The notes below the pieces were generated by a model that was given only the letters and a program-made list of their open reading frames with translations, was not told the origin of the DNA and searched no databases. 51,791 nucleotides of DNA from Desulfobacterales bacterium (lineage in GTDB: Bacteria; Desulfobacterota; Desulfobacteria; Desulfobacterales; JAHEIW01), in NCBI GenBank assembly GCA_050124655.1, contig JASFEV010000002.1, forward strand, positions 1 through 51,791, in the 5' to 3' direction. Below are positions 9,587 to 51,160 of the stretch, one piece after another. The translations under genes and the position numbers were made by a program. Positions within the stretch are counted from its first letter, which is position 1; each line of letters starts with the position of its first letter.

Positions 9587-9811
9587 ATTTTCATGCAAGA
9601 TTCAGGTATGACCTGAATTTTGCACGCGTCGGAAGCTTTCATATGCAAGGCACTTCAGGGTGAAGCTATAGTGAACTATGCTTCGCCCTGAATAACGCCG
9701 CAGATGGAAGCTTCCGGCTCGCCCAACGGGTGAAAATAGATGAGAAATAAATGGATTATCATCCAATAATAGAAATATATTCTCATCTATTTTCATGCAA
9801 GATTCAGGTAT
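9587..9811. repeat. Perfect 23-nt direct repeat (two copies, 202 bp apart) enclosing a 16-bp inverted repeat
   Basis: ATTTTCATGCAAGATTCAGGTAT occurs at 9587-9609 and 9789-9811. The inverted repeat is TGAAAATAGATGAGAA (9731-9746) and TTCTCATCTATTTTCA (9780-9795). Confidence 0.9.
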
Positions 9812-9901
9812 TAGCAAAATACGGGTATTACAACAAGAAAAAGCGGTAGCTCAAAATAGTGGCAGCTAAAATAGAAGACAGAAATGGGCGATAAAAAGGG
9901 A

Positions 9902-10270
9902 TTAGGCAATCGGTCCGGCAACTTTTCTCAATTCAACACCATCGATCACCATGAACCAGTCATCGCCATCCATGTAAGGTGGTTTATGCACGTCAAAGGT
10001 TGTGGTAAAAAACAACACACCAATAATAAAGTCGTCACCCTCAAAATTCTTCAGGGGACCGGAGACCTTGGTTGAACGTTTACCATTTACCCGGCGGTAA
10101 TTCACGCTGCCATTGTCGTCTATGGTCAGTTGAAATCCGACACCTTCCCAAGTTCCGATATAAGATCTTTTGTCTTCCGGCACTGGTATCGAGTTGCAGC
10201 CGCCAATCAGGCCGGCAAAACCGACCACGACCAGTATCAAAACGAAACGGTAGAGAGATTTGCGCATCAT
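9902..10270 (-). CDS. Hypothetical small lipoprotein
   Basis: MMRKSLYRFVLILVVVGFAGLIGGC is a signal peptide plus lipobox. 122 aa, no recognisable domain. Confidence 0.6.
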   Translation of the reverse strand: MMRKSLYRFVLILVVVGFAGLIGGCNSIPVPEDKRSYIGTWEGVGFQLTIDDNGSVNYRRVNGKRSTKVSGPLKNFEGDDFIIGVLFFTTTFDVHKPPYMDGDDWFMVIDGVELRKVAGPIA

Positions 10271-10451
10271 GGCCCCCCAATGCTTGACAATATTAAATGG
10301 ATCGATTGTCTGACCGCTGGGAGGATCATTTGATACGAAGAAAATTGTGATTTTACGATCGGCATTTCAGCGCTGTAAAATCATAATCCCCCCGATATTA
10401 TTATCTGCCATAATGCGATTAACTTTAGTATTTTTTCGCTGAGCAATAATT

Positions 10452-10934
10452 TTATTTACCGGGTTTTATTTTCAATAGGCAGCAACCTTTCTGCCCCGCT
10501 CTCCAGGTTTCCATAGAAAAGACAAAACCGGCACCCTCAAAGGTGCCCTTGTCAACAATGGCGGCAATATCACACATGTGCGCAATATCGCTGTCTGTCA
10601 ATCCTGCTTCTTGCCAAGCTTCTTTCAGGGGGCAACGACGCATCTTGATTTCCAGGCCGTTGTCATCGCATCTGCGCACTTCAGGATCAAACATCTTGCC
10701 GCCGTCTGGAATAAACGCCAAGAATGCATCTTTTAACCCCGTGAGATCAGCAGGCGCGAATTTTTTAAAGGGTTTGCCGATTTCCAACCCGCGGTTATAA
10801 ATGCCGCGCTTGATGATTTCAGCCGCTTTGGGTTCTCCGATTTCGTTTTTGAGCGTCGCATAAATATGCCAGTACATCATGGCGCGGTTTTTAAAAGCGG
10901 CATATAATTGTTTACGCAAATCTTCTGCAGACAT
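10452..10934 (-). CDS. Probable L-2-amino-thiazoline-4-carboxylic acid hydrolase (ATC hydrolase) family protein
   Basis: 160 aa with Cys-containing motifs (RRCDDNGLEIKMRRCPL, HMCDIAAIVDKG, GCCLLKI) that I associate with this small family. Recognition by memory only. Confidence 0.45.
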   Translation of the reverse strand: MSAEDLRKQLYAAFKNRAMMYWHIYATLKNEIGEPKAAEIIKRGIYNRGLEIGKPFKKFAPADLTGLKDAFLAFIPDGGKMFDPEVRRCDDNGLEIKMRRCPLKEAWQEAGLTDSDIAHMCDIAAIVDKGTFEGAGFVFSMETWRAGQKGCCLLKIKPGK

Positions 10935-10948
10935 GATCTTCTCCTATT

Positions 10949-11076
10949 GGGTTTTCCCGTTGAGTCCGCCTCCGGCGGATTAGGCCCGTTAAGAAAGGAA
11001 AAAGTCTCATTTTATTCTTTAACCGGCAAACGGGCTAATCCACCAGAGGCGGACAAGCGGGTAACGGGCTCAACCC
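10949..11076. repeat. Imperfect palindromic element built from CCCGTT/AACGGG words
   Basis: The left arm is 10949-10990 (GGGTTTTCCCGTTGAGTCCGCCTCCGGCGGATTAGGCCCGTT). The right arm is 11021-11076 (AACCGGCAAACGGGCTAATCCACCAGAGGCGGACAAGCGGGTAACGGGCTCAACCC). The arms are mutually reverse-complementary with a few mismatches. Confidence 0.8.
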
Positions 11077-11107
11077 AAGAACCTTAAATGCATTTTTAAG
11101 ACGGGTT

Positions 11108-12016
11108 CTATTCATACGATAAAGTGATCTGGGGTGTCGGCGGATGGATGATTTTCATCTTGTCTTTGGCCTGCTGATGCCGGTTGAGCACATCGTCCAC
11201 CACAGTTGCTACCGCGTCGAACTTTGCAATGCCGAAAACGGATTGATAGTGTTGGATTTGTTTTTCAATCAATGGAACGATTTGGGGGTGCTTCATCAAT
11301 TCTTCTCTGGAAAATCCCTGCGCCAGGCCTTCGGTGACCCGTTCGACCACATCGTAATCATATCCCAGGTCTTTAAAATCACTCTGGCCCGGTTCCAGAC
11401 CGGCTGTCGGCTCGCGCTGGATAATTTTTTTGTCCAGACCCAGGAAAGCGGCCATTTCGCGCACCAGCCGTTTGGGTAAACCGGCAATCGGGCTGAAGTG
11501 CACAGCCCCGTCCCCAAAGAGGGTATAATAGCCAATACCGAAATCTTCATCGCGGTTTCCGGTTCCGGCCACGGTTTTGTTTTCCGTTGCTGCTTTGGTT
11601 GACAACACATTGGCGCGGATTCTGGAGATCATATTGCCTTTATGAAATTTATTTTCAAAGGCTTCCGGGTTGGTCGATTTGAACGATTCCACCAGCGCCT
11701 CGATGCTGTGGATTTCGTAGCGCAGCCCCAGATGTTTGGCAACAAATACGGCATCGGTTTCGTCCATCGACACGTTGACGCGCGACGGCAAAATATAGCC
11801 CACCAGCTCTAGCGCCTGCTCATCTCTGGTGCTTTTGGCATTATAGCGATCAAAGCTGGTTTTAATCAGTGCCGCTGCCGTGCTCGAATCCACTCCACCG
11901 GATAAGCCGATCACACATCCACTGGAAGCTGCCTGTTGCACCACATCGATGACAAAATCACCGATTTCCGCACAGACTTTTTTACAACCCATGGTTGCCA
12001 GTTTAATAGGTCGCAT
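11108..12016 (-). CDS. nadE: NH3-dependent NAD+ synthetase
   Basis: 302 aa. PP-loop motif GLSGGVDSS plus NadE-like YYTLFGDG. Confidence 0.9.
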   Translation of the reverse strand: MRPIKLATMGCKKVCAEIGDFVIDVVQQAASSGCVIGLSGGVDSSTAAALIKTSFDRYNAKSTRDEQALELVGYILPSRVNVSMDETDAVFVAKHLGLRYEIHSIEALVESFKSTNPEAFENKFHKGNMISRIRANVLSTKAATENKTVAGTGNRDEDFGIGYYTLFGDGAVHFSPIAGLPKRLVREMAAFLGLDKKIIQREPTAGLEPGQSDFKDLGYDYDVVERVTEGLAQGFSREELMKHPQIVPLIEKQIQHYQSVFGIAKFDAVATVVDDVLNRHQQAKDKMKIIHPPTPQITLSYE

Positions 12017-12328
12017 TATAAATCTCCAGCTGAAGGTATCTTTTCGATATGGTTACGGTCAATCGGTTTAAAGTTGACGATTGACATGGCTTTCATTTCT
12101 GGGGTTGTCATTCAATATTCCGGGCCTATTTTCTTAATGTAGTATGGGTTTTGTGGTTTATAGGCTCCTACGCCATTTATGGGAAAGGAGAACAAAACAT
12201 GAAATCTAAATATATGACCGCTATGACAATTTGTCTATTCATGTGTATTTTGAAAAAGACGGCATCGTTCGAAAAGTCAGCAAGAGCAAGGTTTCCGGCG
12301 GTAGCAGTTTTATCAACTAGCAGTCCTT

Positions 12329-13699: not shown

Positions 13700-14271
13700 T
13701 TCTTTTTTTCCTGTAGTTCTTCTGACCGGGGGATGGCGTTGCGTTTTTTTTCTTCCATCTTGATGTCGATGCGTTTGAATTTCTCCAGCTGTTCCCGCAG
13801 CTGGTTTATTTTTTGCTTTTGAATTTTTACTATTTTTTCCAAAGGTGCGTTGCGTTGCCTTAAATCCCGGATCTGATCTTCTTGTGCGCGGAGGTTACCC
13901 AGCACCACCAACCACAATTCGGCCTCCGGGCGCAGCTGACTGGCGGGATAGCGATCGATGATAACTTGAAAAGCTTCAGCCGCATTTTGGACATCACAGT
14001 CCGGATTGGCCGGATGGGCATAGATCAGGCCAAGCTGAAACAACGCCTGATCCGCCAGATTTTCCGAATACTGCCTTAAAACGCGCTGGTTTATCGCAAG
14101 AGCGCTGCGGTAATCGCCCCTGGCCATAAACTGTCTGGCCTCGAGCAACTGTTGATCCCCCTGTGGCGGTGGCGGCCCATGCAGACATCCCATGACGATT
14201 ACAGATAAGATCACCCAACAGGCAGGGTAAAGAAAAATGTGCTGCCCTGTCCGGGTTCGCTTTGCACCCAT
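13696..14271 (-). CDS. TPR-like lipoprotein with C-terminal coiled coil
   Basis: Signal and lipobox (VILSVIVMGC), a TPR-like stretch (ARQFMARGDYRSALAINQRVL, ADQALFQLGLIY) and a KQKINQLREQLEKFKR coiled coil. Its stop overlaps the regulator start (ATGA). The N-terminus overlaps the kinase 3-prime end, so the start is uncertain. Confidence 0.6.
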   Translation of the reverse strand: MGAKRTRTGQHIFLYPACWVILSVIVMGCLHGPPPPQGDQQLLEARQFMARGDYRSALAINQRVLRQYSENLADQALFQLGLIYAHPANPDCDVQNAAEAFQVIIDRYPASQLRPEAELWLVVLGNLRAQEDQIRDLRQRNAPLEKIVKIQKQKINQLREQLEKFKRIDIKMEEKKRNAIPRSEELQEKKK

Positions 14272-14948: not shown

Positions 14949-14998
14949 TTTTTTGATTTCCGGTGGTGAAGAAATGGTATCAATTTCATTTTATCTTC

Positions 14999-15054
14999 AA
15001 CCGGAAAAACGGGTCAATCCACCAGAGGCGGACAAGCAGGTAACGGGCTCAACC
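14999..15054. repeat. Solo copy of the right arm of the 10949-11076 element
   Basis: AACCGGAAAAACGGGTCAATCCACCAGAGGCGGACAAGCAGGTAACGGGCTCAACC matches 11021-11076 at about 52 of 56 positions. No inverted partner nearby. Confidence 0.85.
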
Positions 15055-15126
15055 GATGGATGTAGGTACTGGGACGGATCCGAGAAGGGGAGTGGGGTCA
15101 AGCGAGCCAAAGGCGCGCCGGCATAG

Positions 15127-15161: not shown

Positions 15162-15181
15162 TGTTCAAAGAAGACCTTTGG

Positions 15182-16847: not shown

Positions 16848-16890
16848 CTGTCAAATGCTGTCAAATGCTGTCAAATGCTGTAAACATTTG
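16848..16890. repeat. Tandem 10-mer array CTGTCAAATG x3 plus a degenerate fourth unit
   Basis: CTGTCAAATGCTGTCAAATGCTGTCAAATGCTGTAAACATTTG. The last part forms the inverted pair CAAATG...CATTTG. It lies about 180 bp upstream of the HTH gene start. Confidence 0.9.
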
Positions 16891-17880
16891 ATAATAAATC
16901 ATTTTTTTTATTGAAATTCAGACCTTCGTCTGTTAAGGTGGCTGTGTCCATGCTGAAATGGCTGTTTTAGCGCCTCCCATATCATTGTTTTACAATTCGG
17001 AAGTGCGGCATAATTGGTCTTCGCTTTCAGCTTCGGCCCAACACGGTGTTTGTAGAAAAAAGTGATTGAATATCGGAACGTTTTTTTAACAACCACTAAA
17101 AGCGACGAGCACTTATCATCGCATTATCTTGATAAGGCGTTTAAAGCAGCATCAAACAGCATGCAGTCCTCAGGGGGGATACACTTTACCGGATAGAGGA
17201 AGGTTTATTAAAGGAAGCCGACGCCTAATAAACAAGTTCTTTGCCAATTCTGCTTTTGTCCCTGGATCGGGTTAAGTTATTCCCCTTTGCCCCTTTACAT
17301 CTTTTCTGCCTCGTGCCCCTTTTGCTCCATACTGCCCGGAAAAAGGGCTAACAACCGATAACGAATCTGTTTCCGGACGACGCGTTTTTTCGAAGGAATG
17401 GTGAAGGCTTTGTTTCTGCTCAGTAACATTGCGGTTGTTTTTGGCGATCATCTGAACATCGCTACAAAAACAAAACGGCATTCTTATGGAAGGCGCCATT
17501 TGTTTGCGCTGGTTGACCAGCCATATCCTCACTGGTTAACCAGTCCTTATATAATACATGACTAGTCATTTTTTACTACATTTGTCTCTTCTTCTTCATT
17601 ATGCAGGCCGTTGAGACAATTTCAAATGTTAGGCGTACGCGTGCGGATCATCGGGGGACCTATCCGGGCGCTACCCATGGACGGATCAGTCTTGGCGCTT
17701 CAAAAGCACCTTTATCAACCGGGACCGTCGCCTTGTTTTTTGGGTAGGTGCATCTGCCACCAGTAAATCCAGCTACGGCTTGTACACCCCAGTGCTTTCT
17801 GAATGAAAGCGGGGCAGATTAAAAAAGGGGTGTTGCTGGGGTGTACTTGCCGTAATTAAAAAGGATTACGCGAAAAAAGA

Positions 17881-24228: not shown

Positions 24229-27200
24229 TTACTCATCGCGGATCAACAGTTTAATTTCATCAGAATTGGCTTTCAGCTCTGGTGCATACATGGCGTAGGC
24301 TCTGGTGGGCAATGCGCTGAATTTTCCCGGGATCTCCGCCCGCAGGCGATAGCTGACACTGTGTTTGCCGCGTGCCAGGCGACGCACAAAGAAAGCGACC
24401 TTCTGATCCCGAAATTCAACATAGGCCCCCATGTCATTGCCGGTGTAGCCACTGCGCACCTCAATCGGCTCAAAGCCGGCAGCCTTCATGTCCTCAAAGA
24501 CCAGATATTCATAATCGTTTTTGCTATCGATGATCAACTCAACTTCTACCAGCTCACCGCTGTTTACAGTCGCCTGGTTTTGAAGTGGCTGGCGCTCATA
24601 TTTTTCCACCCGGCGGTCGACCACCTGCCCACGCGAACCGGCATCTTTCATTTTCGTGTCGATTTCTGTTATGCGGAATAAACGCCGCTGGACCTTGATC
24701 TCCAAACCTTCTTTGGTGATAAAATCTTCCAGTGAAAAATAATCCAGATAGGCGTTAAAATAAATCCGACCCCGACCGGATTTTTTAAGCGTCACCGAAT
24801 GGGCGCCGCCCGCAATCTGCTTGCCCTCCAGCACCCATTTATGGTCGAAGGTAAACAGGTTTTGGGCATTCATCCGAATGGTTTTCACCTTTTGGTCATT
24901 AAAAAAGACGTCCAGGGTGAGATCCGGTGCGGCTTCACCACTGGCTGCCAGATAATCGGCAAAGGCTTCCACGATCACCGCCGTATCCCGGGTGCTGTTC
25001 CAGTAGGTGGCATGCTTGCGATTGTTGAGCAGATATTTGATCAGACCGGGCGCTTTTTCACTGGCCGGATCAGTGCGCGTCAATAACTTAAGGTAATAGG
25101 CGTGTGCTTCGTACTCGGAGCCGTACCAGTACCACCAATAATCGTTGTTGGGCAGATTCAGGTGGGCGGTCTGGTTTTCATCATCGACCACCAGAAATTG
25201 TTCAATATTTTGAATGATCATGGCCAGTTTTTCATTGTCCTCAACGTTGACCAGTGCCAGGCCGAACATCGCCTTGGCATAAACCGCTAGCCGGTTGCGA
25301 TCACGGTACAAATAGGCGCGCATCTTTTCGTTTTCCAACCCTTCATCGGTCAGTACCATATACACAAAGGCATCCAGATTGTCGGCCTGGCCTTTACCCT
25401 TCTTTTGGGTGCGGTCCCAGAGCATCAGGCGGTCAATTTCTTTGGCCTGATATTCTCTGAGCCACTGTACACCCCTGGCGAGCACGTCGCCGGGAATGGT
25501 GACGCCATTTTCGCGGGCAATCTGCAGCCCATGGATAACCAGAGCGGTGGTGTGTGGATAGGACTGCTCGCCATAGCCACTAAACCAGCCCCAGCCGCCG
25601 TCGGACAGCTGCATGGCAACCAGCCGCCGGACGCCGGCAGCCACCATGGATGCCACTTCGTCTTCGTCAAACACCGGGTTGTGGTCATAGCGTCGCCACT
25701 GGGCCGCACGTCGGGCGTCATCACCGATTTCCTGGGCGTTTAAATGGGTGCGTTTGTTTTGTACGTCAGCCAGATCGATACCCATGCGTTTTAAGGTTTG
25801 CTGGGTGATCACAGTGGGCAAAAATCGGTTTAAGGTCTGTTCGGTGCAGCCATATGGATAGCTGACCAGGTACGGCAGGGCATCCACCATGGCGCCGGCC
25901 AATGTCGGTGAATAGCGCAGCTCCAGGCGGGATTGGTCCACCCGCCGATCAGCGGGCACCTGAAACTGGATCTGGGCTCGGGTCTGGTCGGTGTGCATGA
26001 CACCGCTTTTGGGCACCTGTTTGACCATGCCGTGCACGTAAACCGGAAAGCGCATTTGCACAGCGTCGGACTCCTCATCGGTCAGCGCCTGTATGCGCAC
26101 CACAGCCTCGCCTTCTTTGATGACGCTAACGCGCCAGTCCACCCGGGTTTCACCGTTGGCGTCAACGGAGACCGATCGGGTTTGTTGTTGGCCTTTAACC
26201 AGGACCAGGCTGCCGCCCTCCAGTTCCAGTGAGACTTTAGCGACCTTGCTGTCCTTTAAATAATTATGAACGTTGGCCGACAGCACCACCTCATCGGTTT
26301 CCACAAAAAATCGAGGGGCCTGCAGGCGCACAATCAAATCCTTGCGCGTCACCAGTTCAGCTTGTCCCTGGCCGACTTTGGTGCCGTGCCCCATGGCCCA
26401 GATTTTCGCCTGCCATCCGGTCAGGTTTTCAGGCATTGTAAAGCGGACTTCCGCCATTCCCCGGGCGTCGGTGGTAATGTTGCCTGACCAGAAGGCGGTA
26501 TCGGCAAATTGGGTGCGCACCGTGGGTTGCTCAAGATCCCCGGCAGCCGGTGCTTCTTTGTCGGCCAACCGGCCGGGTTCGTCTGCTTTTCGCTCAAGCA
26601 TGGCGTCGGCCTCACCGGCCGCGGACGGCGCAGGCGCCCCCATTGCGCCGCTCTGGGCAGCGACCTTTGAGCGGGCCTTCTTATGCCCAGCCCGCGATTC
26701 TTTTGCGGCCGGCTCGGCCATGATAAGATTGCCAAAGACCCCGATAGGTTTCATGGAGGGTTCATTTTTTTTGAGCAGATTGGCGAACCACCGCGCCAGA
26801 CTGGACTCCTGGTAAGATCGATGGTGCCGCCGCCATTTCCAGAAGAATGAGCGAATTTCCGGCACATTGGAGCCACCGGAGATATATTCCACGGCGCGGT
26901 CATAAACGCTGATGACGGCCGTGCCCTGAAAGGGCTCACCATCATAATCGGTTAACTGAACATTGAGCGTGGCCGTTTGGCCGGGCCGATAGTCTTTTTG
27001 GGCAGGTACAACGGTTACATTGAGCACCCGTTTTTCAGGCGGCACTGCGATTTCACGGACCTCCGTGTGCACTTTGCCGCCGTAGACCGTGAAAGCTTCC
27101 ACAAAGAAGTTGGGCATGTCGTTTTTTGAAATGCGAATCGTCTGCTGGACGCTTTTGCCGGCCGGGGTAATGACCTTGGGCGCCAAATAGATGCCGTTGA

Positions 27201-30200
27201 CCGGGCGCACAAACAATACCACGGTGGCCCCCGGGCGATCGGTGTTGATTTGCAGCTGTAACCTGTCTCCGGGCGCATATTCGGCTTTATCGGCGATCAG
27301 TTCGATCTTGGCAAAGCGGTAACCGGTACCGTCATCTCCCTCGCCGCGCACGGTAAAGATATAGCCGCCTTCAATGGAATGGCCTTTGGCATCGCTAACG
27401 GTATAGGACAACCGGTATTGGCCGGAACGGGACGCCTGAATCTGCAAAGCGGCATTGCCCTGGTCGTCCGTGTTCAGGGCCCAGCGGGCCACTTCGGTCT
27501 CCCGGGGCTGGTTGTCTTGATAGGTAATGCGCAGCAGTTTGAGCCGGCCCTGGCCGGCAACCGGATCATTGTCGAGGGTTTGGGCTTTAAAACGGGCCAG
27601 GATGGTGTCGCCGACGCGGTAATGGCCGCGATCCAGCCAGGTATATACCTTGAAGGGTTTGCGGGCCACCAGTACTTGACCTTGACCGATAATGGTCCGC
27701 CGGGACTGATCCCGCACCTCGGCTTTGATGGTATAGCGGTGGTCGCTGTCGCCGTGAATCAATTTGGCCAGTGTGGTATCGATGGGGATCTTAACGCTGC
27801 CGTCGGGGCCGATGTCAACTTCACCGTCGGCTACGATTTCCGGCGGTTGTTGTGGCCATTGTGGCCACCAGCGCCGGATGGGTCTAAGGCAGCCCCAGTC
27901 TTGCCAGCCCGGGTACCAGGCATAATCATAGACATACCACCAATAACCCGGTCCATAAAGCCAGTCCCAGTAAAATTGGGGATACCAGCGGCTGTCGTGT
28001 TCGCTGCGCAGTATCTTGTATTTGACACGGGCTTCAGTGACCGGGGAGCCGAAGTAATAGGCGGCTTTAATCGTAGCGGTGATCTTTTCGCCCAGCATGA
28101 CCGGCTCGGTGGGGGCTTCCACGCCGACCTCAAATTCGGGTTTTTTGTATTCTTCCACTCGAAAGGTCTGGCCGCCATATACGCTGCTGCGGTTATGGGA
28201 GATGCGATATACACCCAAGGGCGCCTCTGCCGGGATTTGAAATTCGCCCTCAATACCGCCATAGGCATCGGCCGTCAGGCGTTGAGAATACATTTGCTCG
28301 TTTTTGGGATTGTGAATGCGAAAATTAAACTGCTGGCCGGCAAAGGCAGACGTGTCGTCTTTATCATAGCGGGTGTGCCGCACCCAGGCCTTGAATTTAA
28401 CCGTCTGGGCCGGCCGATACACCGGCCGGTCGGTCATGATCAGGGTTTTGGTCTGGCTGTATTCGCTGTCATCATAATTCGGATACCAGACATTGGAAAA
28501 ACCTAAAAAAGCCAGACGTCCTTCCCGAGCGGATGCGGTCGCCAGCCAGGACATATTTGAAGGCATTTGGGCCGGCGCTACGATCACCAGGCCGTTTGGG
28601 TCGGTTTTTGTGTTTAATTCCCGGTGAACGATGCGATAGCGATTGGTGTCTTTGATAGGGCGGGTGCGGTAGCCGAAAAATTCAAGATCGACACCGGGCA
28701 AGGCCTGGCCGCTGACCGCATCGGCGACATAGTAGAGCATTTGCTGTTTGAGCGGCTTTTTAACGATGACCGTGTCGGCCACCCAGATAATGATGCGGGC
28801 GATGTTGCCGTCTTGCATGCGGGCAGTGACGAAATACGCCCCAGCGGCTTTGAGGGCATCGGGAAATTGAACGCTTACGTGGCGGTCCCAGTGTCGCTCG
28901 TCAGGGTCCAGATTCAGCTGCCAATTGGCCACTTGCTGGCCGACGTACCGGCTCTGGTTTTGATTGACAATGCGCCAGCCGATATTGTTGAGGTTGATGC
29001 GATGCCAGTCCAACCGCCGGTTTTCAGAGCGGATATAGTCCTTTACATCGTCAAGCAGCCGCTTGACCCGGATACGCCGGGCGCTAAACATCACCTTGCG
29101 GCCATTGCGATAGCGATACTCCACCTGGGGCGTTGTATCGGCCGGCTGAATCCCGGCGGGTTCAAACGCGCCCCAGTTTTTGGTGATTTGATCCATATGC
29201 TGCTGGGCGACGGAGCGATTATACGGTTTATACAGCTGCCAATAATGGAGGGCACGATCGTATTGCCGCCGGTTTTCGTAAATCTGCGCCAGTGAGCGGG
29301 CGGCATTTCCGGCGTGACTGCTGTTAGGGGTTTCAAGGATTTTTTTAAAAACTTCGATGAAACTAAATTCAGCGGGTAGATCAAAACGCCGGACCCCCAC
29401 CGCCAGGCGGGCGATGGTTTCCCGATCGGTTAAGGTATGCACCGCATAGACCCCGCTGTCATCTTTTTGGTCCGTTTCTTTATCCATGGGGCGCCCGCGG
29501 CCGAAGAGCATACCGTATTCCGCCAGCGTTTGAACGCCGAATTTCTGATGTAAAAAGGTGGCCCAGGTGTAATCGACGCCGGCCTCCAGCGTCGGATCAA
29601 GTGCTACGGCCCTGGCCAGCAGCCAGCGCCAGCGCTCACCGTCGGAGACCGCAGTCGTATAGTCTTCCGGAATTTGATGATATACCGGCCGGCCCTGCGC
29701 ATCCACCGGGGCATAACGGGTGCGGCTGCCATAGGGATGGCCGTATCCAGGCTCAACATCCGGCAAGCGGGTAAGATCGGTCAGATATTGCAGGCGCCAG
29801 GCCTGGGCGGTTCCGCGATGTTGCTGCAGGATTCCGGCAAACGCCATGTAAAACTGGGCCACTTCGGCTTTTTGCGGATCCGATTCGGCCGGCGCCATAG
29901 CCTGTTGCAGCAGTTGCAACGCGCGCACGCGATCGCGGGCCAGAGCGTTGACATATTTTCCGCCCCCCCGATGATGGCCGCGTTGAAATTCACCGGCGAT
30001 CATATAGCCCCAATGGGTGTTTTGGCTGTAACTGCGGGCCGCAGCCAGCAGCAATCGCCAGTTGGCTGCATGTTGTTCAATGACCGCCTCACGGAAATCA
30101 TCCAGCTGATGCAACTGGTTAAGCTGGCGCAGGCACTGCCAGGCCTGGGTAAAATCCGAGGGAACCATTTTCGGATCCGTTCTGGGATTCAGACTCAGTT

Positions 30201-30357
30201 GGCGATATAGATCAAAGGCATCCTGCCAGTTGCCATCGGTGTAGGCCTTTTGGGCCTGTTTGCGAATTTGATGATGGGCTGCGTCTTCAGCCCCGGCAGG
30301 TGCGGCTATGAATAACACCGTCGTTATGAAAAGAAGGATAATTTTTGTTTTCATCAT
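24229..30357 (-). CDS. Bacterial alpha-2-macroglobulin family protein (thioester-containing), 2042 aa
   Basis: Signal peptide MMKTKIILLFITTVLFIAAPAGA. Thioester motif GCTEQ, with CTEQ codons at 25837-25848 (about residue 1504), in the context YLVSYPYGCTEQTLNRF. Ala/Glu/Lys-rich low-complexity segment (AAKESRAGHKKARSKVAAQSGAMGAPAPSAAGEADAMLERKADEPGRLADKEAPAAGD) in a bait-region-like position. GGAGA ribosome-binding site before the ATG at 30357. Confidence 0.9.
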   Translation of the reverse strand: MMKTKIILLFITTVLFIAAPAGAEDAAHHQIRKQAQKAYTDGNWQDAFDLYRQLSLNPRTDPKMVPSDFTQAWQCLRQLNQLHQLDDFREAVIEQHAANWRLLLAAARSYSQNTHWGYMIAGEFQRGHHRGGGKYVNALARDRVRALQLLQQAMAPAESDPQKAEVAQFYMAFAGILQQHRGTAQAWRLQYLTDLTRLPDVEPGYGHPYGSRTRYAPVDAQGRPVYHQIPEDYTTAVSDGERWRWLLARAVALDPTLEAGVDYTWATFLHQKFGVQTLAEYGMLFGRGRPMDKETDQKDDSGVYAVHTLTDRETIARLAVGVRRFDLPAEFSFIEVFKKILETPNSSHAGNAARSLAQIYENRRQYDRALHYWQLYKPYNRSVAQQHMDQITKNWGAFEPAGIQPADTTPQVEYRYRNGRKVMFSARRIRVKRLLDDVKDYIRSENRRLDWHRINLNNIGWRIVNQNQSRYVGQQVANWQLNLDPDERHWDRHVSVQFPDALKAAGAYFVTARMQDGNIARIIIWVADTVIVKKPLKQQMLYYVADAVSGQALPGVDLEFFGYRTRPIKDTNRYRIVHRELNTKTDPNGLVIVAPAQMPSNMSWLATASAREGRLAFLGFSNVWYPNYDDSEYSQTKTLIMTDRPVYRPAQTVKFKAWVRHTRYDKDDTSAFAGQQFNFRIHNPKNEQMYSQRLTADAYGGIEGEFQIPAEAPLGVYRISHNRSSVYGGQTFRVEEYKKPEFEVGVEAPTEPVMLGEKITATIKAAYYFGSPVTEARVKYKILRSEHDSRWYPQFYWDWLYGPGYWWYVYDYAWYPGWQDWGCLRPIRRWWPQWPQQPPEIVADGEVDIGPDGSVKIPIDTTLAKLIHGDSDHRYTIKAEVRDQSRRTIIGQGQVLVARKPFKVYTWLDRGHYRVGDTILARFKAQTLDNDPVAGQGRLKLLRITYQDNQPRETEVARWALNTDDQGNAALQIQASRSGQYRLSYTVSDAKGHSIEGGYIFTVRGEGDDGTGYRFAKIELIADKAEYAPGDRLQLQINTDRPGATVVLFVRPVNGIYLAPKVITPAGKSVQQTIRISKNDMPNFFVEAFTVYGGKVHTEVREIAVPPEKRVLNVTVVPAQKDYRPGQTATLNVQLTDYDGEPFQGTAVISVYDRAVEYISGGSNVPEIRSFFWKWRRHHRSYQESSLARWFANLLKKNEPSMKPIGVFGNLIMAEPAAKESRAGHKKARSKVAAQSGAMGAPAPSAAGEADAMLERKADEPGRLADKEAPAAGDLEQPTVRTQFADTAFWSGNITTDARGMAEVRFTMPENLTGWQAKIWAMGHGTKVGQGQAELVTRKDLIVRLQAPRFFVETDEVVLSANVHNYLKDSKVAKVSLELEGGSLVLVKGQQQTRSVSVDANGETRVDWRVSVIKEGEAVVRIQALTDEESDAVQMRFPVYVHGMVKQVPKSGVMHTDQTRAQIQFQVPADRRVDQSRLELRYSPTLAGAMVDALPYLVSYPYGCTEQTLNRFLPTVITQQTLKRMGIDLADVQNKRTHLNAQEIGDDARRAAQWRRYDHNPVFDEDEVASMVAAGVRRLVAMQLSDGGWGWFSGYGEQSYPHTTALVIHGLQIARENGVTIPGDVLARGVQWLREYQAKEIDRLMLWDRTQKKGKGQADNLDAFVYMVLTDEGLENEKMRAYLYRDRNRLAVYAKAMFGLALVNVEDNEKLAMIIQNIEQFLVVDDENQTAHLNLPNNDYWWYWYGSEYEAHAYYLKLLTRTDPASEKAPGLIKYLLNNRKHATYWNSTRDTAVIVEAFADYLAASGEAAPDLTLDVFFNDQKVKTIRMNAQNLFTFDHKWVLEGKQIAGGAHSVTLKKSGRGRIYFNAYLDYFSLEDFITKEGLEIKVQRRLFRITEIDTKMKDAGSRGQVVDRRVEKYERQPLQNQATVNSGELVEVELIIDSKNDYEYLVFEDMKAAGFEPIEVRSGYTGNDMGAYVEFRDQKVAFFVRRLARGKHSVSYRLRAEIPGKFSALPTRAYAMYAPELKANSDEIKLLIRDE

Positions 30358-30443: not shown

Positions 30444-30486
30444 TATGGGTGGGGTACCTTTTACACAACTTTTACCTAAACTGATC

Positions 30487-30975
30487 GTTTCAAAATAAAA
30501 AAAGGAATACTTTTCTAAGGAATTCTATCGTTTTTAATATTTTTATTTTGAAACCCTTAGGGCTTGTCGATCTCACTGCATCTACTGTGTTAGATGCCGT
30601 TCCGCATAGTACACTATAGCGGAACGACATCTGCCTTGTAGCTGCAGCAATCTCGACAAGCGATCAGCTTAGTTCCCAAAGTTGAGTGTTTTAAATTTTA
30701 AAAAATCTAATTAAAGTTAAAGGAATTCTGTCTTTTTAATTTTTAAAATTTAAAACCCCCAAGGGGCTTATCGATCTCACTGCATCTACTGTGTTAGATG
30801 CCGTCCCGCATAGTACACTATAGCGGAACGGCATCTGCCTTGTAGCTGCAGCAACCTCGATAAGCGCTCAATTTAAGTATTACCTAATCCGAGCGTTTCA
30901 AAATAAAAATATGGGAATATTTTCGTTAAGGAATTCTATCGATTTTAAAATTATTTATCGTTAACAACGAAAAAT
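30487..30975. repeat. Tandem array of about 200-bp structured units (two full, one degenerate)
   Basis: Each full unit starts with an AT-rich hairpin. In unit 1 it pairs 30487-30501 with 30540-30554. In unit 2 it pairs 30688-30704 with 30740-30756. The hairpin loop carries AAGGAATTCT(A/G)TC. A short CCC..GGG hairpin follows. The unit ends in a 98-nt near-perfect palindrome at 30563-30660 (unit 1) and 30767-30864 (unit 2). The third unit (30893-30975) keeps the loop motif in an 8-bp stem. Confidence 0.9.
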
Positions 30976-33211: not shown

Positions 33212-33230
33212 GGGAACTCTCCTATGATCG

Positions 33231-33268
33231 TTTGCCCGTTGTGCCCGTTTAGCCGGTTGCGCCGGCTA
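33231..33268. repeat. Four tandem degenerate 9-mers of the CCGTT/CCGGTT word family
   Basis: TTTGCCCGTT-GTGCCCGTT-TAGCCGGTT-GCGCCGGCT, directly upstream of the asnS start. Confidence 0.8.
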
Positions 33269-33591: not shown

Positions 33592-33688
33592 TCAGATATC
33601 AGAAGTCAGACGACAGATGTCAGAGGTCAGAAGATGGACAGGGTGCATCAACGGCTGTATTTACCTATCTGTCATCTGTCTTCTGATA
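33592..33688. repeat. Imperfect palindrome built from CAGA/GTCAGA words
   Basis: The left arm is TCAGATATCAGAAGTCAGACGACAGATGTCAGAGGTCAGAAGATGGACAG. The right arm, CTATCTGTCATCTGTCTTCTGATA, is its approximate reverse complement. Confidence 0.75.
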
Positions 33689-34051
33689 GAACCAACGTAA
33701 AAAGCTGGGCCGTCTTTGTCCAACAACCCAGCTTTTCAGCCTCCCCAGGCAACCCGGCCATCCACCTCCGGCGGACCCGTTGGCTTTCCGTCCCCTGATT
33801 ACTCAGAGTTTGGCATTTCCGTGAGAAACTTTTTTACAATTTGTTCAAAGAGAAGGCCGGAATCATTACGTTTTCGGCCTCATGGCGATCCAATATGGAT
33901 ATCGGTTCATTGCAAAAAGAACTTTAGCTAATTTTTACTTGATTTTAAGGGCTTAGGGCTAAAAATAAATAAACGCGGTTATCTGGGAAACGCCAGTTGG
34001 ATACATCTGATACAGCCCTTATAATTGAAATATTGTAATATGGAATTAGGA

Positions 34052-35464: not shown

Positions 35465-35604
35465 AGATGACCTTCCGACCAAGCCGCTTGTCTTGATTTG
35501 AGATCGGCACTGTTTTCGGCTGCTAAAATATAAACATCGTGTCATGAAAATAAAGACGACTTCTTCTATTATTTAGGCGAATCTGGTAATATGAGCCCAT
35601 AAAT

Positions 35605-35643
35605 CCGTTATGCCCGTTGAGCCCGTTGTCCCGTTAGCCGGTA
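35605..35643. repeat. Tandem CCCGTT-word repeat
   Basis: CCGTTA-TGCCCGTTGA-GCCCGTTGT-CCCGTTAG-CCGGTAG, in the divergent region between htrA and the radical-SAM gene. Confidence 0.8.
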
Positions 35644-35725
35644 GAAAAATACAGAATCAAGTATCTTTCCGATTTTTCCGGACTCAACCGGTCTGAAATG
35701 GTGCAACGCTCCATAAGCGAAATCC

Positions 35726-38240: not shown

Positions 38241-38382
38241 GCGCGCATAGCGCATCGTTTTTGGCATAGGGCAAAGGGCATGGCGCAAAGAGTGACTGTT
38301 ATGAGACTTAAAAGGATAAATCTAAGTATCGACCCTATACTCTCTGCTCTCTGCGCTATGCGATGTGCCCTTTGCGCTTTGC
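38241..38382. repeat. Inverted-repeat element built from CGCATAG / GCAAAGGGCA / GCGCAAAG words
   Basis: Left arm 38241-38291 (GCGCGCATAGCGCATCG...GGCATAGGGCAAAGGGCATGGCGCAAAGAG). Right arm 38340-38382 (CTCTCTGCTCTCTGCGCTATGCGATGTGCCCTTTGCGCTTTGC). Confidence 0.75.
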
Positions 38383-38404
38383 ACAAAAGCGGAGCTTTTG
38401 CAGT

Positions 38405-43494: not shown

Positions 43495-43511
43495 CGATGG
43501 GTTAAAAATTA

Positions 43512-44945: not shown

Positions 44946-44949
44946 TTAA

Positions 44950-44965
44950 TGTTTCACGTGAAACA
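44950..44965. promoter_or_regulatory. Perfect 16-bp palindrome TGTTTCACGTGAAACA (copy 1 of 2)
   Basis: Read directly, 5 nt after the mnmE stop. The core GTTTCACGTGAAAC recurs at 49249-49262. Confidence 0.5.
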
Positions 44966-45038
44966 ATTCAAACTGGCTTTAAAACGCCCATTTTTTACTT
45001 GATGATTGTGTTGTGATTTACTTCAAAATGCTCAGATG

Positions 45039-45143
45039 AAACGGGTTGAGCCGGTTGGCCCGTTAACCCGTTGACCGGTTTTGTTTAAATTGATAGGATT
45101 CCTTGCTTAACGGGCAAACCGGCTAACCGGAAACGGGCTAACC
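45039..45143. repeat. Hairpin element of the CCGTT/CCGGTT word family
   Basis: Left arm AAACGGGTTGAGCCGGTTGGCCCGTTAACCCGTTGACCGGTT. Right arm CTTAACGGGCAAACCGGCTAACCGGAAACGGGCTAACC in inverted orientation. Confidence 0.8.
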
Positions 45144-45920: not shown

Positions 45921-46264
45921 GCGAATTTTCTCCTGAAGAGGCCGAAAAAAGAAAGCGAGCTGTTTTTGAAAGCATGTCGCCTCGGCGCCAGAAGCACATA
46001 TTAAAAAAGGGTTATGATCGGTGGGATCCGTTTGAAGAACCCAAAGATCCGATCGACATTCGCAAAGATCCCACCAATCGGACCACCCAGATGCTTGTCA
46101 GAGAGTTCTTGCAATCACGCAAATCTGAAGAATACAGTAATTCGTACGGTCGCGGGGTACTGGACCTTGCCCTTGGTATTGTTAACAAAGACGATTATTT
46201 TCAGGGTATGTTCGAATTTTCCTGCTGGTACCGGGAGCTACTGGACAAAGAAGGACCATCCTAA
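45917..46264 (+). CDS. Hypothetical protein (115 aa)
   Basis: Start overlaps the stop of the preceding gene (ATGA), suggesting translational coupling. No recognisable motif. Confidence 0.55.
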   Translation: MSEFSPEEAEKRKRAVFESMSPRRQKHILKKGYDRWDPFEEPKDPIDIRKDPTNRTTQMLVREFLQSRKSEEYSNSYGRGVLDLALGIVNKDDYFQGMFEFSCWYRELLDKEGPS

Positions 46265-46273
46265 AAAGTATCC

Positions 46274-46373
46274 CCGCATGGGGCAAAGGGCACAGCGCAT
46301 AGGGTAAAAGATTGCTCTGACCGTTCGGATAATGCGCTTTTTCCCCGATGCGCTTTGCGCTCTGCTCTATGCC
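46274..46373. repeat. Second copy of the GCAAAGGGCA/CGCATAG word-type inverted repeat
   Basis: Left arm CCGCATGGGGCAAAGGGCACAGCGCATAGGGTAAAAG. Right arm AATGCGCTTTTTCCCCGATGCGCTTTGCGCTCTGCTCTATGCC. Confidence 0.7.
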
Positions 46374-46440
46374 ATAGATTATTCGCCATAAATTTGTTTT
46401 GCCACAGGATTCCAATAGATGTTGGTTTGGACCCATTGAG

Positions 46441-47193: not shown

Positions 47194-47204
47194 ATTGATT
47201 TAAT

Positions 47205-47459
47205 CTCACCGCAGAGGCGCAAAGCCCGCAGAGAGATTTATCCTTTAGTTTTCCGCTGAGACGGCGAAAAACTAAAAAAAGCTCTGCCCAATGGACAAGC
47301 TTTTTCCTGTGTAAAAGCTAGATCGTCTTAAAACTATGACTATATTAATTGTGATTAATAATTGTTTTGCCGAAGGCAGATTGTTTGGTCTGATTATTCC
47401 TCTCAAATAATCAGACCAAGAAAAACTATTCTCTGCGATCTCTGCGTCTTTGCGGTGAG
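47205..47459. repeat. Pair of inverted arms built from CGCAGAG/CGCAAAG words flanking about 195 bp
   Basis: Left arm 47205-47235 CTCACCGCAGAGGCGCAAAGCCCGCAGAGAG. Right arm 47431-47459 CTCTGCGATCTCTGCGTCTTTGCGGTGAG. Internal 12-bp perfect hairpin GGTCTGATTATT (47387-47398) with AATAATCAGACC (47406-47417). Confidence 0.7.
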
Positions 47460-47476
47460 TAACGCAGACCATCACA

Positions 47477-48604: not shown

Positions 48605-48624
48605 GGCTTAACCCTTATTTATCA

Positions 48625-49047
48625 TTAATATTCATTCCAGGTGAACGTGCCATCCCCTTGAGCCGCTAATATGCCTGCTTCCTGCAAGCGTTGAATTGAC
48701 AGATGCGGATGCGGCATGTCATTTTTATTAGCAATTTCGAACACTTGAGAAAGTTTAAATGGTTCTTCCAGTTCCTCAATCAGCGGTTTGTACGCCTCAA
48801 CGAGTTTCTCTACCGACGGAAGTCGTTGCTCGCCGTATTTCATTTCCACTGTTTCTTGCGGCTCAACGGCAGCGGGCTGTTGCTTGAATCGGCTGATAAC
48901 CCTTTGTCGATCCTCCCATATTTGAAGCAGTCGGTGAATCTGGGATATAACAAATGACAGTACAACCAGGCCCGAAAAGACGATCGATGCGCCTGCCGCC
49001 GCAATGGCCCATCCATTATTGTTCGTTATGTTTTCTAAGCCAAACAC
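48625..49047 (-). CDS. OadG-like small membrane subunit with an extra about 90-aa C-terminal soluble domain
   Basis: It has a single N-terminal TM segment (GWAIAAAGASIVFSGLVVLSFVISQI) and sits directly upstream of the beta subunit. The OadG assignment rests on position and topology. Confidence 0.45.
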   Translation of the reverse strand: MFGLENITNNNGWAIAAAGASIVFSGLVVLSFVISQIHRLLQIWEDRQRVISRFKQQPAAVEPQETVEMKYGEQRLPSVEKLVEAYKPLIEELEEPFKLSQVFEIANKNDMPHPHLSIQRLQEAGILAAQGDGTFTWNEY

Positions 49048-49248
49048 TTTATGCCTCCATGTTCAATATGTGTATCCTGGTGAACTTTTTCTCCCGCGGA
49101 AAGTAGACCGATCAGGCAAGATATGAAAGATAAGAGATGGTTCCGCTATTGGGTAGTAAACGATTTAATTGGTCACACATCATTAGAGATGTCAATAAAA
49201 AACCTCCAATCCAATTCAAATTTAAATAGAGCGAAGCCAGTGCGAATT

Positions 49249-49262
49249 GTTTCACGTGAAAC
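49249..49262. promoter_or_regulatory. Perfect 14-bp palindrome GTTTCACGTGAAAC (copy 2 of 2)
   Basis: Read directly, in the 594-bp divergent region between the OadG-like gene and the BMP-family gene. Confidence 0.5.
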
Positions 49263-49641
49263 CTCGTTCAATAGGCTCTGGCATAAAGGAACAGATAACT
49301 TGATAAAAGCTGATATGCGCTTTGTTATTAATATCATTGAAGATATCGCTTTACAACATTTTACACATTCTAACCATTTGAAATGTATATAAATAAATTT
49401 TTATGATTTTGAAATTCAGACTTGACCACAGGCAATTTTTTTATTTATAAAGGCAAGATCCTTTAAAGCATGTGTGTCGCGCACTAGCGCATCTTGTGAT
49501 CCCTATTGATAGAGCAAAGGATCCTTCTGGGGGGATCGGATATCATCGGATCAAAGTAGCAGACGCTTTAAGGAATTATATCGTTTCTCCCGCCGGTGAC
49601 GATACGTGTTTCTCATTACACCTTAAGAAGGAGGACAATTC

Positions 49642-50835
49642 ATGACAAAAAAAATATTTCCCGGTTTCGCAACCATCTGTCTTGTTTTTGCCTTCATATT
49701 GGCCGGCGCTGGTTTGGTAGCGGCGGAACAAAAGCCCAACGTCTTCGGGTTGCTTCTCGTCGGGCCATACAACGACCATGGCTGGAGTCAGGCCCATTAT
49801 GAGGGCGGCAAGTATGTCGAGAAAATGGTGCCGGGCACCAAGATGATTTACATTGACAAAGTGAATCCGGCCGATCGCCAGGGAGTCACAATTCCGCAAC
49901 TCGTTGACGATATGGTCGAAAAAGGCGCCAAGCTGATCATTGCCAACTCTGACGACATGAAAGACGGCACGCGCGAAGCAGCGGCCATGCATCCGGATGT
50001 CTACTTTATTCATATCTCCGGAGACGATGTACTGACCGGCAAGGCTCCCAAGAATTTGAGCAATTTAATGGGGCGCATGGAATACGGCAAGATGATGGCC
50101 GGTTTTGCGGCTGCTCTTACCACCAAGACCGGAAAAATTGGCTATCTGGGACCCCTCATCAACGAAGAGACGCGCCGACTGGCTGCTTGCGCCTACCTGG
50201 GTGCTAAATATGCCTGGGCGAATGTGCTTAAAAAAGACCCCAAAGAGCTGAAGTTTCAGGTCACCTGGATCGGCTTCTGGTTCAACATCCCCGGTGTAAC
50301 GGCTGACCCGACCCAGGTGGCGCAAAATTTCTTCAACACCGGCTTTGATGTGTTGATATCCGGTATCGACACGACCGAAGCGGTGGTGGTCGCCAAACAG
50401 AAAAAACAGGAAGGCAAAGCCGTCTGGGCTATCCCGTATGACTACATCGGTGCCTGTGAAGGCGCGGATGACGTCTGCCTGGGCGTACCGTATTTTAACT
50501 GGGGGCCGGGTTATGTGGACTTTGTCAAAGCGGCTTTCTCCGGCAAATGGCAATCCAAGTGGATTTGGCTGGGGCCGGACTGGAAAGATATCAACAATCC
50601 TGACACCAGCACCATCGGCTTTACCAAAGGACCGGCGCTTGCAGCGGATGCCCAAAAACATCTGGCAGGTTTTATCAAGGGCTTAGGCTCCAAAAAGATC
50701 AACCTGTTCAAAGGGCCTTTGAACTATCAGGACGGCAGCCCGTTTGTTAAAGCCGGCCAGAAGGCCAGCGACAAGCAGATCTGGTATATGGAGCAGTTGT
50801 TGGAGGGGATGGAGGGGGCCAGTAGCGCCAAGTAA
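49642..50835 (+). CDS. BMP-family (PnrA/TmpC-like) ABC transporter substrate-binding protein
   Basis: 397 aa. Signal peptide, then LLLVGPYNDHGWSQAHYEG and GYLGPLINEETRR typical of PF02608 proteins. GGAGG ribosome-binding site upstream. Followed by an ABC ATPase. Confidence 0.88.
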   Translation: MTKKIFPGFATICLVFAFILAGAGLVAAEQKPNVFGLLLVGPYNDHGWSQAHYEGGKYVEKMVPGTKMIYIDKVNPADRQGVTIPQLVDDMVEKGAKLIIANSDDMKDGTREAAAMHPDVYFIHISGDDVLTGKAPKNLSNLMGRMEYGKMMAGFAAALTTKTGKIGYLGPLINEETRRLAACAYLGAKYAWANVLKKDPKELKFQVTWIGFWFNIPGVTADPTQVAQNFFNTGFDVLISGIDTTEAVVVAKQKKQEGKAVWAIPYDYIGACEGADDVCLGVPYFNWGPGYVDFVKAAFSGKWQSKWIWLGPDWKDINNPDTSTIGFTKGPALAADAQKHLAGFIKGLGSKKINLFKGPLNYQDGSPFVKAGQKASDKQIWYMEQLLEGMEGASSAK

Positions 50836-50863
50836 TTTTTAATTTCTAAAAGGGTCTTTTTCC

Positions 50864-50948
50864 GATGAGCGTTGTTCTCCGCGGATTTCAGCCTTCGACG
50901 TACGACCAGTACGCCGAAGGCTAAAATCCTTGTGCGGCCGCGCTCATC
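50864..50948. repeat. About 85-nt nested palindrome in the transporter operon spacer
   Basis: Three nested pairings: GATGAGCG with CGCTCATC, CCGCGGATTTCAGCCTTCG with CGAAGGCTAAAATCC..GCGG, and CGTAC with GTACG. Confidence 0.8.
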
Positions 50949-51064
50949 AAAAAAATCCCTAATTAATAAATTAAAAATAGTTTTTTCTATTTATTCTCAG
51001 TTAGTGAATCCTTATACTCGATATAATCCACCACAATATTTCAGTAAGTTCTTACCGAGATGAT

Positions 51065-51106
51065 AAAGTGCAGAAGAATGTGCATTCTTTCTGCACTTTT
51101 TGTTTT
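51065..51106 (+). terminator. Rho-independent terminator
   Basis: AAAGTGCAGAAGAATG-TG-CATTCTTTCTGCACTTT followed by TTTGTTTT. Confidence 0.7.
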
Positions 51107-51128
51107 CTGCTTTCAATTGCGCATTTCC

Positions 51129-51160
51129 ATTACTCCATTACTCCACCACTCCAGTACTCC
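51129..51160. repeat. Four tandem 8-mers ATTACTCC-ATTACTCC-ACCACTCC-AGTACTCC
   Basis: Read directly. No inverted partner seen nearby. Confidence 0.9.

Follow-up and report, generated by a model that had tools for sequence, protein, structure and literature searches.

Tandem-word arrays and foldback elements in the intergenic spacers of an uncultured Desulfobacterales population

What produces a set of intergenic elements that share one build while their sequences differ from spacer to spacer? The question is raised by a stretch of 51,791 nt (contig JASFEV010000002.1; the window in what follows) from an uncultured member of the Desulfobacterales found in wetland metagenomes, in which a preliminary description had listed 12 stretches made of short, degenerate tandem words. 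All 12 read as described, and they lie in 10 different spacers. The window was compared with near-identical metagenome-assembled genome (MAG) and Joint Genome Institute (JGI) contigs of the same population, at 99.2–99.9% identity, and with 80 orthologous loci from other species of the order (1.25 Mb in total). The latter were gathered by an RNase G protein scan, and their protein identity to the window ranges from 93% down to 45%. Strains and loci are cited by L numbers where they need to be told apart.

The elements were found to disperse, to slip, to carry mirror-image arms, to invert and to turn over at gene junctions. We favour the view, to which we give an even chance, that they are non-autonomous, DNA-level foldback repeats that disperse and, once in place, vary in length through slippage. 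The architecture itself has been described before; the interest lies in its extent in the Desulfobacterales and in its dynamics.

Word arrays, word families and paired arms

Tandem Repeats Finder (TRF) located 13 arrays (period 6–10, score at least 30) in the 9.0 kb of window spacers and 1.3 ± 1.2 in dinucleotide-preserving shuffles of the same spacers (200 runs, maximum 7 arrays), a roughly tenfold excess. The 42.9 kb of coding sequence held five arrays of period 6–10. The word structure, which the preliminary description had allowed might be no commoner than in shuffled intergenic sequence, is therefore more frequent. Window arrays have TRF periods of 7–10 and 2–5 copies. Among the 80 related loci, 157 intergenic arrays were found, at 0.99 per kb of spacer, with coding sequence at 0.19 per kb; a period of 7 is commonest (59 arrays), followed by 8, 9 and 10. 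Array density is highest in loci with at least 78% RNase G identity, and arrays are sparse in more distant ones. The spacers of all loci contain 127 stems, compared with five in one shuffle.

Word periodicity, assessed at each site against 1000 shuffles, was significant (P ≤ 0.003) at eight of the 12 listed sites: 33231–33268, 35605–35643, 51126–51161, 16848–16890, the left arm of 33592–33688, and both arms of 45039–45143, 38241–38388 and 46274–46373. It was not significant at 10949–11076 (P 0.05–0.07), 14999–15054 (0.12), 17281–17335 (0.14) or in the arms of 47205–47459 (0.85 and 0.12), where word length is mixed and lag periodicity fails for that reason. Owing to the degeneracy and variable length of the words, most sites escaped a strict lag-based array detector and an exact-5-mer recurrence test (the latter giving no significance for most spacers), and TRF with shuffles took their place. 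The null result of the recurrence test, together with the non-significant periodicity of 17281–17335 and three other sites, are what could be said for the sites being chance patterns or assembly artefacts. The enrichment over shuffles and the recurrence of the same element sequences in independent MAGs, JGI contigs, and Logan DNA and RNA contigs refute this for the set as a whole, and as a general explanation it is almost certainly wrong. It holds only for 17281–17335, which the preliminary description had counted as a related stretch: it shows no periodicity, no folding, no TRF array and no matches in relatives, and has no support of any kind as an element.

The words of the window fall into a CCSGTT family (8–9-nt units, five loci), an SGCAWAG family (7-nt units, three loci, 17281–17335 excluded) and three singles. 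Words had been described as differing by locus, which does not hold: 47205–47459 shares CTCTGCG/CTTTGCG words with 38241–38388 and 46274–46373, and two main families and three singles therefore remain. About a dozen families were named by eye across the 80 loci. Those recurring across species are AAAGTGCCT, CCTGAAA, ACAGAAG, CCAATAC, CATTACTC, GGAATAAT, CACGAAGG, GGTTGAGCC/CCCGTT, AGCGCAT/GGCAAAG, GGAATTTA, CGAAATT and ACGAGG. Each of the larger families occurs at several non-orthologous junctions in many genomes, and so behaves as an ordinary multi-copy dispersed family. The preliminary description had foreseen this outcome in its own refuting proviso. When word units were clustered by single linkage, unrelated 7-mers were chained into one cluster of 46, from which it is not readable whether the families are discrete or continuous.

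Six of the 12 window sites fold as long hairpins far better than shuffles (z −3.3 to −10). On the plus strand the z scores are −5.8 for 10949–11076, −3.4 for 45039–45143, −3.8 for 38241–38388, −5.0 for 46274–46373, −10.2 for 47205–47459 and −3.8 for 33592–33688. The remaining six are single arrays that fold no better than shuffles, so an arrangement in two inverted arms, described as usual, applies to half of the sites. The six inverted pairs have loops of 40–195 nt and arms of 18–34 nt, in elements of 97–255 nt, and about 38 hairpins with arms composed of words occur in the relatives. A shared architecture filled with different words is thus confirmed well outside the window. Where similar arrays lie no more than 300 nt apart, they are inverted in ten cases and direct in one. 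Mean arm complementarity falls from 0.88 in register to 0.59 with a shift of one word and to 0.19 out of phase, the first value being somewhat inflated because the register was picked as the best. Within a pair, each arm is an inverted copy of the other, in register. In paired arrays, one site is placed 3′ of a gene and its partner 5′ of the next.

Slippage, inversion and turnover, and how they may be explained

Four differences separate the window from strain L095 over 13.8 kb, and one of them is a 7-nt word in the right arm of 38241–38388 (at 38338); both alleles of this indel are common in DNA and RNA runs. Strain L091 is without one 8-nt word of 51126–51161, and the copy number of the CTGTCAAATG array varies, with alignments to several near-identical strains breaking and overlapping exactly at 16848–16890. 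Arrays grow and shrink in steps of whole words, the change expected of slipped-strand mispairing and one that had been proposed from the window alone. Inversion, the other half of that proposal, is seen for 38241–38388, whose counterpart in L015 has the opposite orientation (minus strand, 89.5% over 105 nt).

Comparison of orthologous spacers, which had been recommended for dating gains and losses, showed that elements come and go at gene junctions. The radical-SAM/RNase G junction is nearly empty in four species (L027, L032, L037 and L043), and elsewhere carries SGCAWAG hairpins (eleven species), GGAATTTA hairpins (three) or CGAAAT hairpins (three). At the mnmE junction, AAAATGCCT-family elements are present in L015–L020, L040 and L080, and the site is empty in L026, L032, L033 and L043. 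One family likewise replaces another at the mnmE, htrA and FGE/OAD-beta junctions. The element at 47205–47459 is missing from metagenome contigs of related populations, in which 47200 is joined to 47483, and relatives hold other families in that spacer.

Dispersal is seen in copies at unrelated sites. The right half of 10949–11076 and the region of 14999–15054 are 84% identical over 90 nt, loop sequence included, and judged by this similarity the two are conventional paralogues; further paralogues that share loop sequence are found in L043, L054, L061 and L071. In L018, one hairpin is nested in the loop of another. The ATTACTCC array (51126–51161) has 5–8 times higher depth and tens of different flanks in DNA metagenomes.

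An RNA-level explanation would make the elements operon stem-loops that block exonucleases, end or attenuate transcription, or are sites of RNase III/E processing, like REP (repetitive extragenic palindromic) elements and bacterial interspersed mosaic elements (BIME) of Escherichia coli. It draws on the strong folding of six sites, on the many elements between co-directional genes, and on metatranscriptome contigs that span 38241–38388, 45039–45143 and 46274–46373; with the limit that such contigs may contain DNA, the last observation also means that transcription is not obviously blocked. The mismatches in the stems do not bear this explanation out. On the sense strand, G-U pairs (20) are not in excess of A-C (23), and most mismatches (63) pair on neither strand. 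Stability does not differ between sense and antisense folds (sense more stable in 15 of 29, P 0.84), and only one of 39 pairs is compensatory in five orthologues of 46274–46373. Array density is equal in co-directional, convergent and divergent spacers (1.3–1.7 per kb, 27–29% of spacers occupied), half of the sites are single-armed, and no Rfam family matches any element at the gathering threshold or at E ≤ 0.5. These results speak against an RNA structure maintained by selection, and also against a function linked to promoters or terminators, and we consider the RNA explanation very unlikely. Taken with the mirror-image arms, the mismatch, folding, covariation, density, transcript and Rfam results speak for an origin and maintenance of the elements at the DNA level. 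CsrA-type GGA decoy RNAs were also considered, and rejected since the arms are complementary.

In the favoured account of dispersing foldback repeats, each element is an array of tandem degenerate 7–10-nt words, often as two mirror-image arms around a variable loop, with several word families coexisting within one genome. Besides their turnover at junctions, the elements nest in one another and exist as many copies at unrelated sites. Copies may reach new sites through a trans-acting enzyme that recognises words or hairpins, or else by way of a single-stranded hairpin intermediate, as in REPINs (REP doublets forming hairpins). The elements would persist as tolerated passengers of the spacers, and not for any service of the hairpin to the mRNA. 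By analogy, such repeats would resemble REPINs and miniature inverted-repeat transposable elements (MITEs).

Several observations weigh against this account. Near-identical strains show word slippage only, with no insertion or excision event, and comparisons of filled and empty sites revealed no clear target-site duplication, but at most an ambiguous 2–3-nt flanking repeat (CA or TAA). No transposase, REP-associated tyrosine transposase (RAYT) or other candidate enzyme was seen within the scope of the ~52 kb window and three metagenome loci. A scan of the window open reading frames (ORFs), from which several small ones were left out, recognised no transposase gene, and nothing RAYT- or transposase-like was seen by inspection, without a family scan, among ORFs beside paired hairpin matches in L107, L115 and L124. 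About five positions per word are conserved and one to three are free, as judged by eye, which is how a protein-binding motif would look. The element at 46274–46373 is conserved together with its loop across five species, as a purely selfish element need not be. The RNA contigs used above may hold contaminating DNA, and one of them spans a divergent promoter region.

Word cores of this kind are the starting point for a reading in which the arrays are cooperative sites for nucleoid-associated (IHF/HU) or ribbon-helix-helix proteins, with one 7–8-bp word per dimer and one protein per word family, and in which inverted pairs bracket a spacer that they loop or insulate. Short repeated boxes are known as targets of the omega repressor (7-bp heptads, both direct and inverted), of MetJ (tandem 8-bp boxes) and of ParG, whose ACTC boxes, at a spacing of 8 bp, resemble 51126–51161. 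The conserved core with its one to three free positions, the recurrence of the same words across species, and the position of pairs, with one site at a gene's 3′ end and its partner at the 5′ end of the following gene, a placement shared with Geobacter metallireducens, agree with it. We nevertheless hold it to be unlikely, though credible: a single junction may be empty or carry any of three families in close relatives, and arms match in register well past the word consensus (0.88 against 0.59), which binding sites do not need. In addition, spacers containing promoters are not preferred, about a dozen families would require as many proteins, and no binding has been shown so far. DnaA-box clusters were rejected, having the wrong motif.

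The word slippage that is the only change between strains, and the arms that are mirror copies, would be expected also if the elements never moved but grew in place: slippage would amplify any short seed, template switching (quasipalindrome correction) would copy it onto the other strand, and the copies would be homogenised. Word families held in common would in that case be due to convergence or to descent at orthologous sites, and the CAGAG/CAAAG core common to the FGE/OAD-beta junction words of different species is in keeping with this. Growth in place is, however, fairly improbable, since non-orthologous sites have identical degenerate arrays in common, as well as loop sequence that is not made of words, the ATTACTCC array has its tens of flanks, and unrelated families replace each other at one junction. 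A structure-specific but sequence-tolerant activity, which the preliminary description had raised, would amount to a lineage-wide generator that builds and spreads foldbacks from arbitrary 7–10-nt seeds, either as an enzyme or as a peculiarity of replication and repair in part of the Desulfobacterota. We think such a generator decidedly unlikely; if it existed, the identity of the words would be incidental, with many families maintained side by side by one machinery. In a variant of it, each word family would be the address of one member of a co-evolving family of word-reading proteins.

Individual elements and their surroundings

The window elements lie between core genes close to the replication origin; dnaN, gyrB, rnpA, yidC, jag and mnmE are present, together with two parS sites. 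The parS palindrome TGTTTCACGTGAAACA, which we take to be a ParB/Spo0J site, is perfect at 44950–44965, directly 3′ of mnmE, and a second copy at 49248–49263 has one mismatch; no match of this type is expected by chance. The copy at the mnmE junction is kept in nearly all related loci.

Five sites carry CCSGTT words. The first, 10949–11076, between nadE and an ATC_hydrolase gene, is a foldback in which a few words flank a small REP-like hairpin in each arm (10964–10982 and 11038–11056); an inverted repeat was detected, and on the minus strand its folding z is −8.1. A half copy of this element, consisting of a single arm, lies upstream of a histidine kinase gene (14999–15054) and carries the ATCCACCAGAGGCGGAC hairpin. 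A single array at 33231–33268 (TRF period 9, P 0.001) is about 20 nt upstream of the start of a class II (Asp/Asn/Lys-type) tRNA synthetase gene; it has no hairpin apart from a short local stem, and matching sequence is found in the same spacer in L080, L013 and L024. Another single array (35605–35643; TRF period 8, P 0.001) occupies the divergent spacer between htrA and a radical-SAM gene, where relatives have AAAGTGCCT-family hairpins and some metagenome contigs skip 35604–35723. The fifth (45039–45143) is a foldback downstream of mnmE and parS, with arms that are 94% complementary (z −3.4 and −3.3 on the two strands; both arms P 0.001) and an 84% identical orthologue in L083. The same spacer in L013 has a long, non-word hairpin downstream of parS, of which the window (44966–45038) and L083 keep the left half only, followed by the CCSGTT foldback; the mnmE spacer is therefore a stack of partial elements.

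The REP-like hairpin GTCCGCC-TCYGG-YGGAT, present in both 10949–11076 and 14999–15054, also occurs, often followed by AAG, within or beside arrays of many word families in metagenome loci (L195, L196, L198, L172, L191, L153, L127, L152 and others), the host words including GAATCCT, CAATATT, AAAGTGCCT, GTTCGAT, CTATGAA and AATTGAA. A metagenome scan with the 17-nt hairpin core of 10949–11076 gave mostly chance matches, hundreds of which are expected by a rough estimate for a collection of that size; only about five contexts belonged to the CCSGTT family, and in about 15 more the same hairpin was embedded in arrays of other word families. From its placement, the hairpin looks like a tiny second-layer element that lands in arrays. 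In Nostoc, small dispersed repeats occur inside heptamer arrays, a situation that this placement recalls. A second recurrent structure is the double hairpin ATCCGCCAGAGGCGGAC-GAGGGTTCGATTCCCCGCCCCTTGGGGCG, whose second half is like a tRNA T-arm. It was found in about ten unrelated contigs (L154, L159, L175, L178, L187, L189, L192, L200, L201 and L219) and also at position 2196 of L040.

The SGCAWAG family comprises three foldbacks. Heptamer arms form 38241–38388 (z −3.8 and −4.8; both arms P 0.001), which fills the radical-SAM to RNase G junction; the upstream stop codon is in its first word, or, in relatives, the reading frame continues into the array until a stop. Upstream of the FGE-sulfatase gene, 46274–46373 also has heptamer arms (z −5.0 and −3.9; P 0.001–0.003) and, loop included, is kept in L080, L015, L020 and L018, where compensatory changes are almost absent. 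The largest, 47205–47459, fills the spacer between two convergent genes; its 30-nt arms of CGCAGAG/CGCAAAG words are 83% complementary, and its 195-nt loop holds two other hairpins. Low-depth DNA metagenome contigs join arrays of the same family in direct orientation at 33223/35607, skipping htrA and a riboswitch (2.4 kb), and at 46372/47487, skipping the FGE-sulfatase gene (1.1 kb). These joints are either deletions by recombination between arrays in related populations or shortcuts in assembly graphs.

The singles include a foldback with TCAGAAG-type heptamer arms at 33592–33688 (arms 91% complementary; z −3.8 and −5.2; left arm P 0.001), at the edge of which homology with relatives ends. 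It lies between a cyclic di-GMP riboswitch and the class II tRNA synthetase gene. The riboswitch, a c-di-GMP-I aptamer at 33745–33824 on the minus strand (57.6 bits against a gathering score of 35), is about 530 nt upstream of that gene and is kept in L012–L025 and L080. At 51126–51161 is a single array of four to five (N)NNACTCC octamers (TRF score 51; P 0.001). L011 and L016 have the same array at other junctions, and L024 and L031 have related arrays of the ACTCC type. Just past it, from 51183 on (51183–51791), L091–L094 and L096–L098 differ from the window at roughly one base in seven after 16 kb at ~99.9% identity, and the switch suggests a recombination boundary. The perfect CTGTCAAATG repeat (16848–16890; 3.4 copies, 100% TRF matches) is a variable-number tandem repeat with no hairpin; a related array, ATTTGACAGC, is present at another locus in L020.

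Three other features of the window were recorded. A 2042-aa alpha-2-macroglobulin-like gene (24229–30357, minus strand) lies in a G+C-rich stretch (53–58%, compared with ~46% around it). Between it and the next ORF, a unit of ~204 nt is repeated in two to three tandem copies (30467–30955), 93% identical to each other and each with its own 100-nt hairpin; it has no Rfam match. Within a TPR-like gene, an indel of ~100 nt (13745–13847) separates strains that are otherwise 99.9% identical.

Comparison with known repeat systems

Elements of this kind occupy about a quarter of the spacers of at least 30 nt in a widespread clade of relatives of sediment and wetland sulfate reducers. In practice, they break short-read assemblies, yield variable-number markers and can mislead the prediction of operons and terminators. 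A literature search on repeats of Desulfobacteraceae found nothing relevant.

Bacterial MITEs (Correia, Nezha, Chunjie) are 50–300 nt long, have terminal inverted arms, insert between operon genes without breaking them and vary in presence between relatives. The window elements agree with MITEs in size (50–500 nt) and in having terminal inverted repeats, but the ends of MITEs are not arrays of tandem words, and we know of no parent insertion sequence with ends matching the window elements. A likeness in form is offered by the foldback (FB) transposons of eukaryotes and by the sub-terminal arrays of Ac and En/Spm, in which degenerate tandem sub-repeats make up long inverted arms whose length depends on repeat number; these are eukaryotic, far larger and mobilised by known transposases, and the likeness is one of form only. 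Integron attC sites also conserve structure and not sequence, and are found at the 3′ ends of genes. They were rejected because no integrase and no cassettes are present, the neighbours are core genes (nadE, mnmE, RNase G), and attC sites are not tandem words.

REPINs and the window elements both have two inverted arms around a spacer that form a long hairpin, and both are intergenic and non-autonomous, with several families per genome. The arms of REP/BIME/REPIN sequences are single 20–25-nt imperfect palindromes (Bertels and Rainey 2011, PMC3116915). A palindromic unit of the REP type (20–40 nt) is seen here only as the GTCCGCC-TCYGG-YGGAT hairpin of 10949–11076 and 14999–15054, whereas all other arms are tandem words without an internal palindrome. 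In the sequences read, the GTAG or CGTC tag of REPs is absent next to that hairpin. IS110-family elements target REPs in E. coli, which is reminiscent of the IS110 elements at the Geobacter sites discussed below.

Tandem heptamers are known elsewhere: cyanobacterial short tandemly repeated repetitive (STRR) heptamers were reportedly described by Mazel et al. in 1990. TAACTGA direct repeats occur in Beggiatoaceae, Cyanobacteria and Bacteroidetes, with 169 direct sets and one inverted (MacGregor 2015, PMC4679880). Like the window elements, STRR and TAACTGA repeats are tandem 7-nt words in 2–6 or more copies, almost all intergenic and lineage-restricted, and they are often just upstream of start codons, as is 33231–33268. 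They are nearly always direct and mostly of one word, while paired arrays are inverted ten to one here and words differ. The single arrays 33231–33268, 35605–35643 and 51126–51161 fit the direct-array form; the foldbacks do not.

The preliminary description knew of no repeat class with this behaviour, but one has been described. In G. metallireducens, ‘putative global regulator binding sites’ were assigned to four classes (classes 1–4, tags Gmet_I1xx–I4xx A/B) (Aklujkar et al. 2009, PMC2700814). These sites consist of three to five tandem repeats of 5–9 nt, those of classes 1–3 being 7–9 nt long (GTTGCTYN, TCTCCGTS[Y] and MTYCTGA). They are mostly paired on opposite strands at variable distance, some being unpaired, with the A site lying 3′ of a gene and the B site 5′ of its neighbour, as is the case between proB and proA (PMC2700814). 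Binding of IHF/HU was proposed as putative, elements of the IS110 or IS481 family lie at a fixed distance from some class 1 sites, and G. sulfurreducens is without such paired sites (PMC2700814). In G. bemidjiensis, multicopy sequences are present in 12% of spacers.

Tandem 7–9-nt repeats, opposite-strand pairs at variable distance and several classes per genome are common to the G. metallireducens sites and the window, in which half of the sites are unpaired and two multi-copy families and three singles occur within 52 kb. The class 3 consensus MTYCTGA fits the reverse-complement words CTTCTGA of 33592–33688, although a 7-mer match can arise by chance. The two organisms belong to different orders (Geobacterales and Desulfobacterales) and most word families differ. 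Elements of the IS110 or IS481 type at a fixed distance, a feature of class 1, were not seen here. Evidence of slippage, inversion and turnover comes from the present comparison and has no counterpart in the G. metallireducens paper. Word slippage, mirror-copy arms, inversion and junction turnover, together with the lack of an RNA signature, constitute the first evolutionary description of this kind of element. The link to these forgotten Geobacter sites makes the question testable in a genetically tractable organism. Since the window elements have the defining features of the Geobacter sites and lack those of REPs and REPINs, they are best filed with this known but unexplained Geobacter kind.

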